Shown: positions 3,708 to 17,069, numbered from the stretch's first letter. The stretch: DNA of 64,000 nucleotides from an uncultured Pseudomonadales bacterium (GCA_964403125.1 CAYOEO010000001.1:1384-65383), one strand, 5' to 3'. Notes: generated by a model not told the origin, from the sequence alone. A program made the numbers and translations.

Positions 3708-3980
3708 ATGAAAAACATTTCTGTAAAAGGTAAATTGAAACAGCTCGGTCAAGGTATGACGGAATACATCATCATCGTTGCCTTGATTGCGATTGCTGGT
3801 ATTGCTGCGTACAGCTATTTCGGTCAAACCATGCAGGGTGCTGTAGCAGATGTTTCTACCGAATTGTCTGGTCAGCAATCAAAAGACACAGCAAAAGTGG
3901 GTGCTGCTTCGGCTGAAAAAGAAGCTGGCGTAGTAAAAGGTATGGGTAACTTTGATGATACCCAGCAAGGTCAAAAATAA
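3708..3980 (+). CDS. flp: Flp family type IVb/IVc prepilin
   Basis: Internal ATG at 3708 of track ORF 3606..3980, preceded by GTGGAG. Sequence MKNISVKGKLKQLGQG|MTEYIIIVALIAIAGIAAY matches the Flp G/XXXXEY processing motif followed by a hydrophobic helix. 90-aa precursor. Confidence 0.85.
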   Translation: MKNISVKGKLKQLGQGMTEYIIIVALIAIAGIAAYSYFGQTMQGAVADVSTELSGQQSKDTAKVGAASAEKEAGVVKGMGNFDDTQQGQK

Positions 3981-3995
3981 TCGGCTGTTTTTGTA

Positions 3996-5816
3996 TTGCG
4001 ATTATCAGGGATGAAGCCGCGCTGGTTATGGCAATCGTGGCCCGCTGTTGCTTTGCAACAGCGCGGTCAGGCCATGCTACTGGTTTTATTGTTTCTCACG
4101 GTTTTGATGTTGTCGCTGTTGGTATTGTTCAATACATCGCAATTAACGCGCGACAAAATGGAAGTACAAAATGCCGCTGATTCTGTTGCCTACAGCGCAG
4201 CCTTGTTAGAGGCGCGCCATCTTAATTTTACCGCTTATACCAATCGCGCCATGATCGCCAATGAAGTGGCATTGGCACAAACCATTGGTCTTGCAACTTG
4301 GTTGATGAAATGGGGCGGAACCTTTATCAGCCTCGGCAATATTTTAAATCAGGCTTTAGCGCCTATACCGATTGTTGGACCAATTTTAGCGGCTGCTGTA
4401 AAAGCTGCTTTCACAGCATTCGGCAATGCAGTTGCTGAGTTTTCTAATTTGGTAGGGCAATTTGCGGGTATTTTTTCAAAATTAGTTGCTGGTTTGAATA
4501 CTTTTTATGGTTATTCACAGTTGGCATTTCGTTTCGGTACTTATGAAACGATGTTGAGCATCAGCGATAGTTTGGTACAAAAAAATGCCCCTGGTGCCAA
4601 GATGGGTACGGTGTCTGAGTTTGTGCAATACCTCAATATGTTTTTGTTTGAGCAGTACAACAAAAGCTGTAAACCGGCTGATGCGATGAGTAAATCAGCA
4701 ACGGCAGAAGATCGTGACACCAATCGCGCGTGTATGCGACAAATGGCAGCGGCCGTGAATGATTCGCGTGATTTATGGAGTAAAAACCGCTCCAACTATA
4801 AATTAGGTGCGCAAGAGGAAGTCAGTTGGAAAATTCCTTTGCTGGGAAAATTTGGCTTCCATTTTAAAATTGGTATGTTTCAAGAAGGTGGCACGACTTT
4901 GCGTTATATCGCAGGTACAGGGCCAACAGCCAATCGAGAGCATTTCAACTGGTCGTCCATGGATACCAACGAATTTAAGTTAGGTATTGGTGTGTGGTTG
5001 TTTGGTGCGCACATGGGATTTGAGTTGCCGATGCCCCTAGGTTGGGGAACCATGCAATTGGCACACACCGATAAAAAAGATAAAAAACAATACAAAATTA
5101 TGGATTTGCCGAAGGGCGGTACTAAGTTAGGTCTTGCCGGCTGGGAAGCCGCTTACGGCGATACTTGGGGCAACAATTTATTGTCGAGCATCATGGCTTC
5201 GCCTGGAAAAGCGTTTTATCCGTGGGGGCCTGGCAACACCACACAAGTGCAAAGTTACGGCGATTTAGCACCGTTTCATACGATTGATCCTGATTATCTC
5301 AACGCATCAGGTCAAAGTTGGCAATTTGATTGGCCCGGCACCATTCCGCCACCGTATGTGGTGTGGGTTTATATGCCAGAAAAAAATACACGCACTTCAG
5401 ACAACATGGGCACAGCAAGCCCCGCAGGAAATTTACATCTCGAAAATATGGAAGCAGGGCAATCCTCAGATGATGCGGTTTCTTTAGGGCCTTTTGGACA
5501 AAAGCCTGGCTTGCAAGCGATTTCCAGTGGCGAAATTTATTACAAGCGTACCGATGGTTTGGATGAAGAACCCAATGCGTTTAGCCCGTATTGGGGTGCG
5601 CGTTTAGCGCAAGTAGATAACATGGTGTTGATCTCTGCCATGTTCGCACAAGAACCCAAATTGGCATGGGCTTTTACCGGCATTCAACAAAGTTCGTTTG
5701 ATTTGGCGGGGCAGGTGGATAACGTCAAAAAATCGGTCACCGATGAAATGACAGACATGGACGGTTACGCCAAAGACATGGTGGAAAATGCCATCAAAGG
5801 AATTTTTGGTTTATGA
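3996..5816 (+). CDS. TadG-like pilus assembly protein (Tad N-terminal pseudopilin-like domain plus large unknown domain)
   Basis: 606 aa. N-terminus QQRGQAMLLVLLFLTVLMLSLLVLFNTSQLTRDKMEVQNAADSVAYSAA resembles the TadG/TadE-like N-terminal region. I saw no obvious vWA MIDAS motif. The start may be the ATG at 4011. Confidence 0.65.
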   Translation: MRLSGMKPRWLWQSWPAVALQQRGQAMLLVLLFLTVLMLSLLVLFNTSQLTRDKMEVQNAADSVAYSAALLEARHLNFTAYTNRAMIANEVALAQTIGLATWLMKWGGTFISLGNILNQALAPIPIVGPILAAAVKAAFTAFGNAVAEFSNLVGQFAGIFSKLVAGLNTFYGYSQLAFRFGTYETMLSISDSLVQKNAPGAKMGTVSEFVQYLNMFLFEQYNKSCKPADAMSKSATAEDRDTNRACMRQMAAAVNDSRDLWSKNRSNYKLGAQEEVSWKIPLLGKFGFHFKIGMFQEGGTTLRYIAGTGPTANREHFNWSSMDTNEFKLGIGVWLFGAHMGFELPMPLGWGTMQLAHTDKKDKKQYKIMDLPKGGTKLGLAGWEAAYGDTWGNNLLSSIMASPGKAFYPWGPGNTTQVQSYGDLAPFHTIDPDYLNASGQSWQFDWPGTIPPPYVVWVYMPEKNTRTSDNMGTASPAGNLHLENMEAGQSSDDAVSLGPFGQKPGLQAISSGEIYYKRTDGLDEEPNAFSPYWGARLAQVDNMVLISAMFAQEPKLAWAFTGIQQSSFDLAGQVDNVKKSVTDEMTDMDGYAKDMVENAIKGIFGL

Positions 5817-15500: not shown

Positions 15501-15504
15501 ATGA

Positions 15505-16290
15505 GTGATGACACAAAGAATTGTTTTACTGCTGGCAGTTGTTTTTTTTATAGGGTGCGCTTCATCACCTGATTTAACAACACTCGCAGAGTGGCGCGCA
15601 AAAGCCGACAAGGCTTATCAAGAAGGGCAATATCCGACTGCTTTGCAGTACTACCAAAAGTTATCTAAAGCAGCTCCTTCGGAGGCGGATATTTGGTTTA
15701 GATTGGGCAATACACATGCGCGTATGGATCAAACTGACGAGGCAGTAAAAGCCTATCGTGAAGCGGTGTTGCGCGATAACCACTTTGCTAAAGCGTGGTA
15801 TAACGCGGGTTTTAATCAGTTGCGCGCATCAGCACAAACATTTTCTGAAGCCTTGCGTTATTTGCCACCTAGTGATCCTATTTTTCAGATAGCAAAATCT
15901 TACAACCAACAATTGTTGCAGTTGATGGAGCAGCAGAATCAAGCATTAGAAAAATTATCAAAAAGCAAAGAGGAGTCCAAACCTCTTGATGTCAAAAAGG
16001 TAGAGATGATTGTTTTAGATGGAAAACCGCAAAAAATTTCTGATTTACCGCCTGTGCTGATGCCAGATCAAACATCACCAGAGGCTTTAGAGGCAGCGAA
16101 AATAGAGCAACAGCAAGAGCAAGAGCAGGAAGTGCAACAACACTCTGATGCATCACAACCTACAGCAACCGAGACAACATCAAAGCCTGATGAGAAAAAA
16201 GAAAACCCAAAAGGTAAGGAAGATGCAGAGAAAAATAATTTGTGGCATCCGCCTTTGTTAAAAGCAACAGGTGAGCAGGCTGCTCAATAA
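15505..16290 (+). CDS. TPR-repeat lipoprotein, TadD-like
   Basis: 261 aa. Lipobox FFIGC. TPR-like helices (AYQEGQYPTALQYYQKL, WFRLGNTHARMDQTDEAVKAY). Acidic/Gln-rich low-complexity tail. Confidence 0.65.
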   Translation: MMTQRIVLLLAVVFFIGCASSPDLTTLAEWRAKADKAYQEGQYPTALQYYQKLSKAAPSEADIWFRLGNTHARMDQTDEAVKAYREAVLRDNHFAKAWYNAGFNQLRASAQTFSEALRYLPPSDPIFQIAKSYNQQLLQLMEQQNQALEKLSKSKEESKPLDVKKVEMIVLDGKPQKISDLPPVLMPDQTSPEALEAAKIEQQQEQEQEVQQHSDASQPTATETTSKPDEKKENPKGKEDAEKNNLWHPPLLKATGEQAAQ

Positions 16291-17069
16291 TGAAAAGCGT
16301 GCAATCTTATGCTCGGCAACGAGGCCAAAGTGCGACAGAGTTTATTATTATCGCGCCTGTGGTTTTTATGCTGGTATTTGGTTGCTTGCAGTTTGCTTTG
16401 ATTTATCAAGCCAAAACAACATTGAATTATGCGGCGTTTAATGCTGCTCGTATTGCATCGGTCAATGGCGCAACGCTGACATCAGTGCGACGTGGATTTG
16501 TTATTGGTATGGCGCCGTTTTATACCACGGACAACAATTCATTTAACGTGACGGATGCAGTAGGGATTGTTGATGGTTTGGTGGGGTCTGGATACGTTAA
16601 GTTTGATCGTATCAATCCTACGCGCTTGGCATTTTTGGAATTTGGTGAAGATGATGATGTTACGGGATGGAAAAAAATCCCCAATGACAACTTGATGTAC
16701 CGCGATGCCAAGCCAGGTGCGTCACGCGTTAATATTCAAGATGCTAATTTATTAAAGCTGCAAGTTACTTTTTGCTATCACATGAGTTTTCCTGTGATTC
16801 GCGTCGCGGTTCGTGAGGCAATTCGGGCGTATAACATCGGCCATCATTTGCTGGATTGTGAAGCGAGTACTAATGATCCGTACACCATTCCTATTACTGC
16901 ATCTGCGTTGATACGGATGCAATCGGATATCCTTGATGATCCGGCATGGCATGTTTGGCCGTATGGTTCTAGTTCGGGTAATTTATTAAATTTGGGCGTG
17001 TTTGGAAATAACGGCATGGGCTTGTCACGCAAACCTGATGGAGAAGATGGCGATCAATCGCAGCCTTAA
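16290..17069 (+). CDS. TadE/TadF-like pseudopilin
   Basis: 259 aa. ARQRGQS|ATEFIIIAPVVFMLVFG is a pseudopilin leader. TAATG overlap with the upstream stop. Confidence 0.7.
   Translation: MKSVQSYARQRGQSATEFIIIAPVVFMLVFGCLQFALIYQAKTTLNYAAFNAARIASVNGATLTSVRRGFVIGMAPFYTTDNNSFNVTDAVGIVDGLVGSGYVKFDRINPTRLAFLEFGEDDDVTGWKKIPNDNLMYRDAKPGASRVNIQDANLLKLQVTFCYHMSFPVIRVAVREAIRAYNIGHHLLDCEASTNDPYTIPITASALIRMQSDILDDPAWHVWPYGSSSGNLLNLGVFGNNGMGLSRKPDGEDGDQSQP

Follow-up and report, generated by a model that had tools for sequence, protein, structure and literature searches.

The canonical Tad/Cpa systems (flp-tad-rcp of Aggregatibacter, cpa of Caulobacter and flp-rcp-tad of Pseudomonas aeruginosa) comprise an Flp pilin with a G/XXXXEY site (the slash marks cleavage), TadE-type pseudopilins, a TadG-like protein, RcpC/CpaB, the RcpA/CpaC secretin, the TadA/CpaF ATPase, TadB and TadC, and a TadD-like TPR lipoprotein, together with TadZ/CpaE and the prepilin peptidase TadV/CpaA. 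To our knowledge, TadZ/CpaE is the only factor that directs where a Tad machine is built. Here, we report the analysis of a Tad locus at positions 3708-17069 of a 64,000-nucleotide stretch of DNA (the whole stretch is called the window) from an uncultured Pseudomonadales bacterium (GCA_964403125.1, CAYOEO010000001.1:1384-65383). The locus has all of these parts except TadZ/CpaE and TadV/CpaA; unlike the canonical systems, it has an FHA-like domain at the N terminus of CpaF, a periplasmic protein encoded from 6747 (the 6747 family), a DUF192 protein, a second Flp-like prepilin, predicted substrates with Gln at +1, and a repeat extension of ~370 aa on CpaB. We consider it reasonably probable, judging from its sequence, that the operon is complete and encodes a functional Tad (type IVc) pilus of the FHA-CpaF (class III) lineage, in which TadZ has been replaced and the peptidase is unlinked.

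Four described systems come close to it. The architecture of an FHA domain, a disordered region and a CpaF core is that of CpaF class III (e.g., E3HIW0 of Achromobacter xylosoxidans), which is reported to be mostly betaproteobacterial; its description takes FHA to bind phosphothreonine peptides and does not mention TadZ/CpaE (PMC12019362). The window protein has the same domain order, and the betaproteobacterial Massilia, Collimonas, and Zoogloea share the window's locus type; unlike in that description, the phosphothreonine residues are replaced in the window's FHA domain, and the absence of TadZ is here linked to FHA. KilF of Myxococcus xanthus has an N-terminal FHA domain and is the single ATPase of a system without TadZ, and Kil may rely on PilD (PMC8460266). 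Likened by description, the window CpaF is also an FHA-fused ATPase without a second (TadZ) ATPase. Kil differs in having two clusters, no TadG or TadD, many extra FHA proteins, a short secretin, and a peptidase, KilA (PMC8460266), whereas the window locus is one operon that keeps the TadG-like and TPR-lipoprotein genes and has a single FHA domain and no peptidase. The Tad system of Bdellovibrio bacteriovorus likewise has no dedicated TadV, Flp1 being processed by PilD (bioRxiv 10.64898/2026.07.08.737194); its TadZ-TadA fusion, in contrast, is an alternative N-terminal state, which occurred in 14 of the loci surveyed below. MSH pilus loci, too, all lack a gene for a prepilin peptidase, which another system is believed to supply (PMC6668835), but MSH pili belong to a different, T4a-related family of type IV filaments.

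TadZ and the N terminus of CpaF

We surveyed 100 CpaF loci, made up of 20 related loci and 80 metagenome loci retrieved with a CpaF-core alignment (single loci are cited below by handles, L001 and so on). CpaF was classed by its N terminus, detectors were checked with Pfam, and loci with at least 1.3 kb of upstream sequence were taken as evaluable; TadZ was detected by an iterated hidden Markov model (HMM), the motif KGGxGK[ST] being too strict. The N terminus was an FHA domain in 55 loci, a fused ParA/MinD (TadZ) domain, the hybrid type described in Bdellovibrio, in 14, and short in 30, several of which are cut by contig ends; one locus was unclassified (L081, with an over-extended open reading frame [ORF] call and a TadZ gene directly upstream). 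TadZ was present in 0/46 evaluable FHA-CpaF loci and in 26/27 evaluable non-FHA loci, as the gene directly upstream in 12 and fused to the CpaF N terminus in 14. Over these 73 loci, the exclusion gives a Fisher p of 6e-19, although the loci are not phylogenetically independent and p overstates their independence. The sole non-FHA exception, L034, lacks both FHA and TadZ and falls within the FHA clade. In a neighbor-joining tree built on the ATPase core, the TadZ-type CpaFs cluster with one another, and the other deep branches are made up of FHA-type CpaFs. The canonical state is seen in a control Burkholderia locus, which encodes a prepilin peptidase, a short CpaF (455 aa), and, at the TadZ position, an AAA ATPase of 402 aa. 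The absence of TadZ is thus a lineage trait, and FHA occupies the position where TadZ is fused in other lineages. An earlier reading of the stretch, made from the sequence alone (the sequence-only reading), had suggested, as one of two possibilities, that the FHA domain on CpaF takes over from the two missing proteins; the mutual exclusion supports this for TadZ only, not for prepilin processing. As far as the searched literature shows, the exclusion and the degenerate FHA pocket set out below have not yet been described.

The same reading had proposed a comparison of synteny, which showed gene set and order kept, without TadZ, in Gamma- and Betaproteobacteria and Acidithiobacillia. The recurrent order is Flp, TadG-like, TadE-like, 6747 family, small Flp-like, CpaB, CpaC, FHA-CpaF, TadB, TadC, DUF192, sometimes a TPR protein, and TadE, and the gene set is retained in different Proteobacteria classes, at CpaF identities of 54-98%. 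It was found in uncultured Pseudomonadales, other gammaproteobacterial metagenome-assembled genomes, Allohahella, Sedimenticola thiotaurini, Acidithiobacillus, Igneacidithiobacillus, Massilia-like metagenome contigs, Collimonas, Zoogloea, and a 129.6-kb Moraxella bovis plasmid, which was the only find in a plasmid database search for further annotated FHA-type loci. Neither TadZ nor A24 was found within ±10 kb of the loci L001-L013, L017-L020, L105/L106, Collimonas, and Zoogloea, all with conserved synteny. A whole locus of this type is present on the Moraxella plasmid, on which neither an A24 gene nor TadZ occurs anywhere and the only ParA-like gene adjoins ParB.

In the window itself, Pfam searches of every polytopic or P-loop ORF found no Peptidase_A24 and no ParA/MinD-type protein in 64 kb; the ORFs scanned were those with at least three predicted membrane helices or a Walker A motif, together with other large ORFs, and outside the locus they are unrelated housekeeping proteins. 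Local A24 and TadZ HMMs, built from related loci and checked with Pfam (their matches being Peptidase_A24 and Response_reg plus ParA/AAA_31), gave no match at E≤1 on all window ORFs of at least 50 aa. The gaps in the operon are all too small for an overlooked gene, and no TadZ/CpaE gene stands next to TadA, while the other hallmarks of a Tad system are there: a CpaF/TadA ATPase, adjacent TadB and TadC (two T2SSF proteins), and a secretin with CpaB. The sequence-only reading, which had seen no ORF resembling TadV/CpaA or TadZ/CpaE, is therefore confirmed across 64 kb by Pfam and the validated HMMs. It had allowed that an unassigned ORF might belong to either family. ORF 2899 encodes a lipoprotein and ORF 6747 a protein with a cleavable signal peptide; both lack Pfam, NCBIfam, or PDB similarity to A24 or TadZ and, being exported and without such similarity, are neither TadV nor TadZ. 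The third, 15147, encodes DUF192. It had also allowed for a tadV/tadZ pair just outside on the left; in relatives with ~90% identical locus proteins no such pair is there, and acyl-CoA carboxylase genes stand in its place.

CpaF (11669-13336; PF00498, E 1e-9; PF00437, E 1.5e-61) comprises an FHA-like domain (residues 1-95, nt 11669-11953, of which PF00498 spans residues 25-86), a low-complexity linker (residues 96-135), and a CpaF core (residues 152-551), which is the class III architecture. Because the core aligns with residues 91-493 of Caulobacter crescentus CpaF, a protein of solved structure (E 7e-119), the FHA domain and linker stand in place of its disordered NTD0. In Caulobacter, NTD0 affects retraction (PMC11300603). 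Among the matches listed, FHA is present on more than 100 CpaF homologues of at least 61% identity, and the region also matches, below threshold, the YscD-type FHA family of type III secretion systems.

Canonical FHA domains contact phosphothreonine through an Arg (in GR), a Ser (in SxxH), a Ser/Thr, and an Asn (in SxNG). Against FHA-1 of Rv1747 (6CAH), the canonical R/S/S/N are replaced in the window protein by K27, A41, D61, and A62, and His alone is retained. K27 is present in 117/117 and A41 in 101/117 close CpaF homologues; more distant FHA-CpaF lineages retain R-S-H-S-N. With the phosphothreonine pocket replaced, the domain is unlikely to be a classical phospho-reader, and we infer that in this clade it is a phospho-independent interaction module. 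It would act in cis as a docking or regulatory module of the motor and, the pocket being degenerate, would probably bind its partners without phosphothreonine. TadZ would then not be encoded elsewhere, and would be dispensable in the FHA-CpaF lineage because CpaF carries the FHA-like domain where others have TadZ.

Signaling genes adjoin some of these loci. In Sedimenticola thiotaurini (CP011412.1; L019 1-1087 and 17223-20581), the locus is flanked by genes for two Hanks-type Ser/Thr kinases (one CHASE2-linked), PP2C, FecR, and a TPR protein, and the FHA pocket of its CpaF is degenerate too (K, A, H, E, and I at the five compared positions). In L002, a PP2C gene and then an FHA protein gene lie ~5 kb off, and in L003 a gene for an FHA protein stands at the corresponding place. 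Kinase-driven FHA regulation was rejected as a general mechanism, as there is no kinase in the window and the FHA pocket is degenerate.

Prepilin leaders and their processing

The prepilin motif G/Qxx(x)E[YF], followed by a hydrophobic helix, is present in four window proteins (starts 3708, 5813, 7440, and 16290), all of which read G/Q-x-x-x-E-[YF]. The TadG-like protein keeps an RG/QAM leader but has Leu instead of Glu at +5; the five prepilin-like substrates of the sequence-only reading thus come to four clear ones and one doubtful. The leader site of the major prepilin (3708-3980) is LG/QGMTEY, of the G/XXXXEY type of Flp pilins, and its mature N terminus is nearly invariant in the clade, GQGMTEY(I/L)I(I/V)VALIA. 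Gln occupies +1 in 54/61 predicted cleavage sites in the clade (the window sites 3747, 5843, 7494, and 16290 and those of clade loci). Canonical Flp pilins have Ala or Val at this position; a +1 Gln is able to cyclise to pyroglutamate and is typical of some archaeal pilins.

All prepilins would be cut at their common G/QxxxE[YF] site by an unlinked A24 peptidase, probably one of the PilD/GspO type that serves another type IV filament system. In published models for detecting Tad systems, tadV counts as a loner that may lie apart, and all MSH loci are without a peptidase gene (PMC6668835); the PilD of Bdellovibrio cleaves Flp1 in Escherichia coli (bioRxiv 10.64898/2026.07.08.737194), and the authors of the Kil study propose PilD as a backup (PMC8460266). 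None of the 29 loci in the window's clade (15 with both flanks of at least 5 kb) has an in-locus A24 gene; such a gene is present in 5/26 more distant FHA loci and some TadZ-type loci. Its presence is variable in all classes. Since tadV is often encoded elsewhere, a missing in-locus peptidase is ordinary and no anomaly. By counting tadV and tadZ both as core, the sequence-only reading overstated the anomaly: tadV is a recognised loner (PMC6668835), and PilD sharing has been shown for a Tad system (bioRxiv 10.64898/2026.07.08.737194). The latter work, a recent preprint, lists TadZ as "non-core".

Operon layout, accessory genes, and flanks

Thirteen ORFs on the plus strand fill 3708-17069; neighbors overlap or are separated by no more than 72 nt. 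The TadG-like ORF (3996-5816) and the TadE-like gene from 5813 overlap by 4 nt, the end of the latter (6754) and the next start (6747) by 8 nt, and TadC starts at 14200 inside the end of TadB (14203); base 15147 is common to TadC and DUF192, and base 16290 to the TPR and TadE genes. All junctions from which the sequence-only reading had argued for one tightly spaced operon were reproduced from the ORF coordinates. Its gene set (Flp, a TadG-like protein, two TadE-like proteins, an Flp-leader protein, CpaB, CpaC, CpaF, TadB, TadC, DUF192, and a TPR lipoprotein) was upheld by Pfam and leader motifs, with assignments made by Pfam and NCBIfam searches of the window proteins.

The Flp-family major prepilin (3708-3980, 90 aa) has a predicted cleavage LG/QGMTEYIIIVALIA and matches PF04964 weakly (E 0.004, 17 bits against a curated cutoff of 32), its leader being clear. 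The TadG-like protein (3996-5816; PF13400 Tad domain, E 3e-8) has an ORF of 606 aa; translation probably begins with the ATG at 4011, for a product of 601 aa, the length found in L105/L106. The TadE-like pseudopilin that follows (5813-6754, 313 aa, leader RQRG/QAMTEF) has no Pfam, NCBIfam, or PDB match, and has syntenic homologues in the clade. The second Flp-like prepilin (7440-8264), the 274-aa Flp-leader protein of the sequence-only reading, has the leader QQLG/QSSMEY, then a Gly-rich linker and beta-flower-type repeats (Bflower_2 at 24.9 bits, below the Pfam cutoff of 38, and a DUF3659 match without any individually significant stretch). The proteins from 5813 and 7440 have no family match above a curated cutoff; their leader is the same as that of Flp and TadE. 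CpaB/RcpC (8294-10273) has SAF and RcpC domains in residues 15-290 and ~370 aa of C-terminal beta-flower/YD-like repeats (PF16976, PF08666, PF21785 at 118 bits, and PF21784), and its match to the TIGR03177 equivalog exceeds the family cutoff. The CpaC/RcpA secretin (10245-11642; PF00263, E 7e-40, and PF13629) likely starts at 10281, giving 453 aa, in agreement with relatives (gene length in L105). CpaF is followed by the platform proteins TadB (13346-14203) and TadC (14200-15147), both PF00482, and DUF192 by a TPR lipoprotein (15505-16290) with the lipobox FIGC and matches to TPR families. The latter is TadD-like (pilotin-like) by architecture only, and its role would be TadD-like by analogy with the description of P. 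aeruginosa TadD (PMC10499894). The operon ends with a TadE-family pseudopilin (16290-17069, 259 aa; PF07811, E 1e-13; leader RQRG/QSATEF).

The Flp-leader protein (7440-8264) and the adjacent CpaB (8294-10273) end in like D-x-x-G-N-V-I-G-K-V repeats, which match the Pfam beta-flower, DUF3659, and RHS/YD-repeat families and are not tandem at the DNA level. Elsewhere in the clade, the gene at the position equivalent to 7440 encodes 67-150 aa and CpaB has 276-665 aa.

The protein from 6747 (6747-7439, 230 aa, signal peptide ending AQA/WP) belongs to a marker family of FHA-type Tad loci. With an iterated HMM, this family of ~230-aa periplasmic proteins was detected in 28 loci, 27 of them FHA-type and one being L034 in the FHA clade, and in 0 TadZ-type loci; its place between the TadE-like and small Flp-like genes is fixed. 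An AlphaFold2 model of the window protein (mean pLDDT 72) suggests two similar alpha+beta halves and had no significant Foldseek match.

DUF192 (15147-15500, 117 aa; PF02643, E 2e-16) has a weak match to PDB 3M7A. The gene stands just after TadC in 38/55 surveyed Tad loci (30/37 FHA, 3/8 TadZ-fused, and 5/10 short-CpaF loci). The domain lacks a signal peptide, so it is predicted to be cytoplasmic; an in-frame fusion joins it to the N terminus of TadE in six loci, ahead of the G/ cleavage site, which would place it in the cytoplasm beside the leader peptide (coordinates for these observations: window 15147-15500, L108 13664-15055, L109 14689-16335, L017 13548-14834, and L025 13629-14843). No paper was found that connects DUF192 with Tad.

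In six FHA-type Tad loci, the last TadE gene is directly followed, in the same orientation, by a gene for a large RHS/YD-repeat protein of 1516-1797 aa (L022 14805-20198, L025 14856-20072, L032 16269-21188, L101 18880-23430, L108 16060-20976, and L109 16340-21517). These loci are Massilia-like, Collimonas, Zoogloea, the Moraxella bovis plasmid, and two metagenome contigs. The encoded RHS proteins carry a Sec signal peptide and an N-domain of the DUF6531 type, which is conserved, and their C-terminal ends vary. RHS genes were found in 0/14 TadZ-type loci having at least 7 kb of downstream sequence, and no paper was found linking Rhs toxins to Tad. In Acidithiobacillus sp. M4-SHS-6 (L008 14823-16094), the TadE gene is followed by one for a 423-aa protein with a Pesticin-like lysozyme domain, and other Acidithiobacillus and Igneacidithiobacillus loci have ORFs of 390-411 aa there, likened to it by position alone.

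Immediately 5' of flp, on the same strand (window 2392-3636), are genes for a stand-alone cyclic-nucleotide (cNMP)-binding protein (151 aa) and a 245-aa lipoprotein without known domain. Conservation of both is limited to relatives whose locus proteins are ~90% identical and does not extend to the wider clade; they may be a lineage-specific regulator or accessory. The left flank in these relatives holds genes for the cNMP-binding protein, a carboxyltransferase, and a 948-aa biotin carboxylase, with a fatty-acid hydroxylase or an insertion sequence element; the right flank holds genes for glutamate racemase, Bcp, and YajC.

Alternative readings and meaning

The machine parts are present: the pilin, three minor prepilins, the TadG-like protein, CpaB, the secretin, the ATPase, TadB and TadC, and the TPR lipoprotein. 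Several points weigh against reading the locus as a functional FHA-type pilus operon with TadZ replaced and the peptidase unlinked. The unlinked A24 peptidase is assumed, not seen, with a 64-kb window to look in. Since L034 lacks both FHA and TadZ, it may be that a Tad locus does not strictly need either one. The exclusion may stem from one or a few ancient events, given that TadZ-type CpaFs cluster apart in the tree of the core, and the sample was picked by similarity to this CpaF. It speaks, moreover, to replacement in architecture, not in function. Finally, the Ser/Thr kinases and PP2C flanking the Sedimenticola locus would fit phospho-regulation despite its degenerate pocket.

Both missing genes might instead be encoded elsewhere and serve in trans, making this a canonical, scattered Tad system in which FHA is irrelevant to the absence. 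A 64-kb window is not a whole genome, tadV is often unlinked, and the Tad model of MacSyFinder allows multi-locus systems, which are, however, described as very rare (PMC6668835). For TadZ, the survey points the other way: it is tightly linked to CpaF wherever present, directly upstream or fused in 26/27 non-FHA loci as against 0/46 FHA loci, which makes a copy elsewhere unlikely, and the Moraxella plasmid copy travels without it; we judge a scattered system to be quite improbable. That the locus is a decaying remnant making no pilus is scarcely credible: two supposedly important genes are absent, but all 13 ORFs are intact and tightly coupled, leader motifs and catalytic domains are conserved, and the same gene set persists at 54-98% CpaF identity across Proteobacteria classes.

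Two further alternatives concern what the accessory genes do. A non-A24 enzyme in the operon could process the prepilins, with DUF192 the candidate, being predicted cytoplasmic, fused in frame to the N terminus of TadE prepilins in six loci elsewhere, and anticorrelated with in-locus A24 within FHA-type loci (cells 1, 22, 3, and 1). The anticorrelation stems from three or four deep lineages, though; the cleavage motif is the classical A24 site, DUF192 has no protease motif or known activity, its sole PDB relative is an uncharacterised protein, and it stands alongside an in-locus A24 gene in L044, L068, L085, and L100. As a substitute peptidase it was rejected, since it co-occurs with A24 in TadZ-type loci, and we give any such enzyme very little credence. 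By analogy with Kil or with type II secretion, the locus might encode not mainly an adhesive pilus but a device with a short Tad fibre that exports or delivers proteins, e.g., toxins. KilF is also an FHA-CpaF in a single-ATPase system (PMC8460266), Sec-dependent RHS toxin genes lie directly downstream in six FHA-type loci against 0/14 TadZ-type loci, and a Pesticin-like lysozyme domain follows TadE in Acidithiobacillus. The window operon, however, has no RHS or other toxin gene beside it, the converging gene being that for glutamate racemase; only 3/27 clade loci have such toxin genes, TadG-like and TPR-lipoprotein genes are kept, unlike in Kil, and gene adjacency is no evidence of secretion. 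Export as the main role is hence rather unlikely for this operon.

The preferred reading, a functional FHA-type pilus operon, can tentatively be extended: FHA-type Tad might be a distinct ancient branch in which a cis FHA-like domain, having lost phosphothreonine binding in this clade, replaces TadZ for docking or positioning the motor. It would have accessories of its own (the 6747 family, a cytoplasmic DUF192 acting on the TadE leader, and +1-Gln pilins) and in several lineages may have been recruited, like Kil, to export downstream RHS toxins. We hold this extended proposal to be possible, though doubtful as a whole.

The window operon is probably complete. Of the two absences first noted, that of the peptidase is ordinary; that of TadZ is genuine and conserved within a CpaF class that has been published but not studied functionally. 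DUF192 and the 6747 family emerge from the survey as two recurrent components yet to be studied, and the recurrent RHS linkage in relatives could point to effectors of Kil-like systems. TadZ-less FHA-type systems occur commonly among environmental Gamma- and Betaproteobacteria and in Acidithiobacillus, and the pattern puts the Kil ATPase of Myxococcus within a much larger family. Three apparently mutually exclusive N-terminal partners of CpaF (a separate TadZ, a fused TadZ, and a fused FHA domain) provide a simple, testable hypothesis for how TadZ-less systems are organised.

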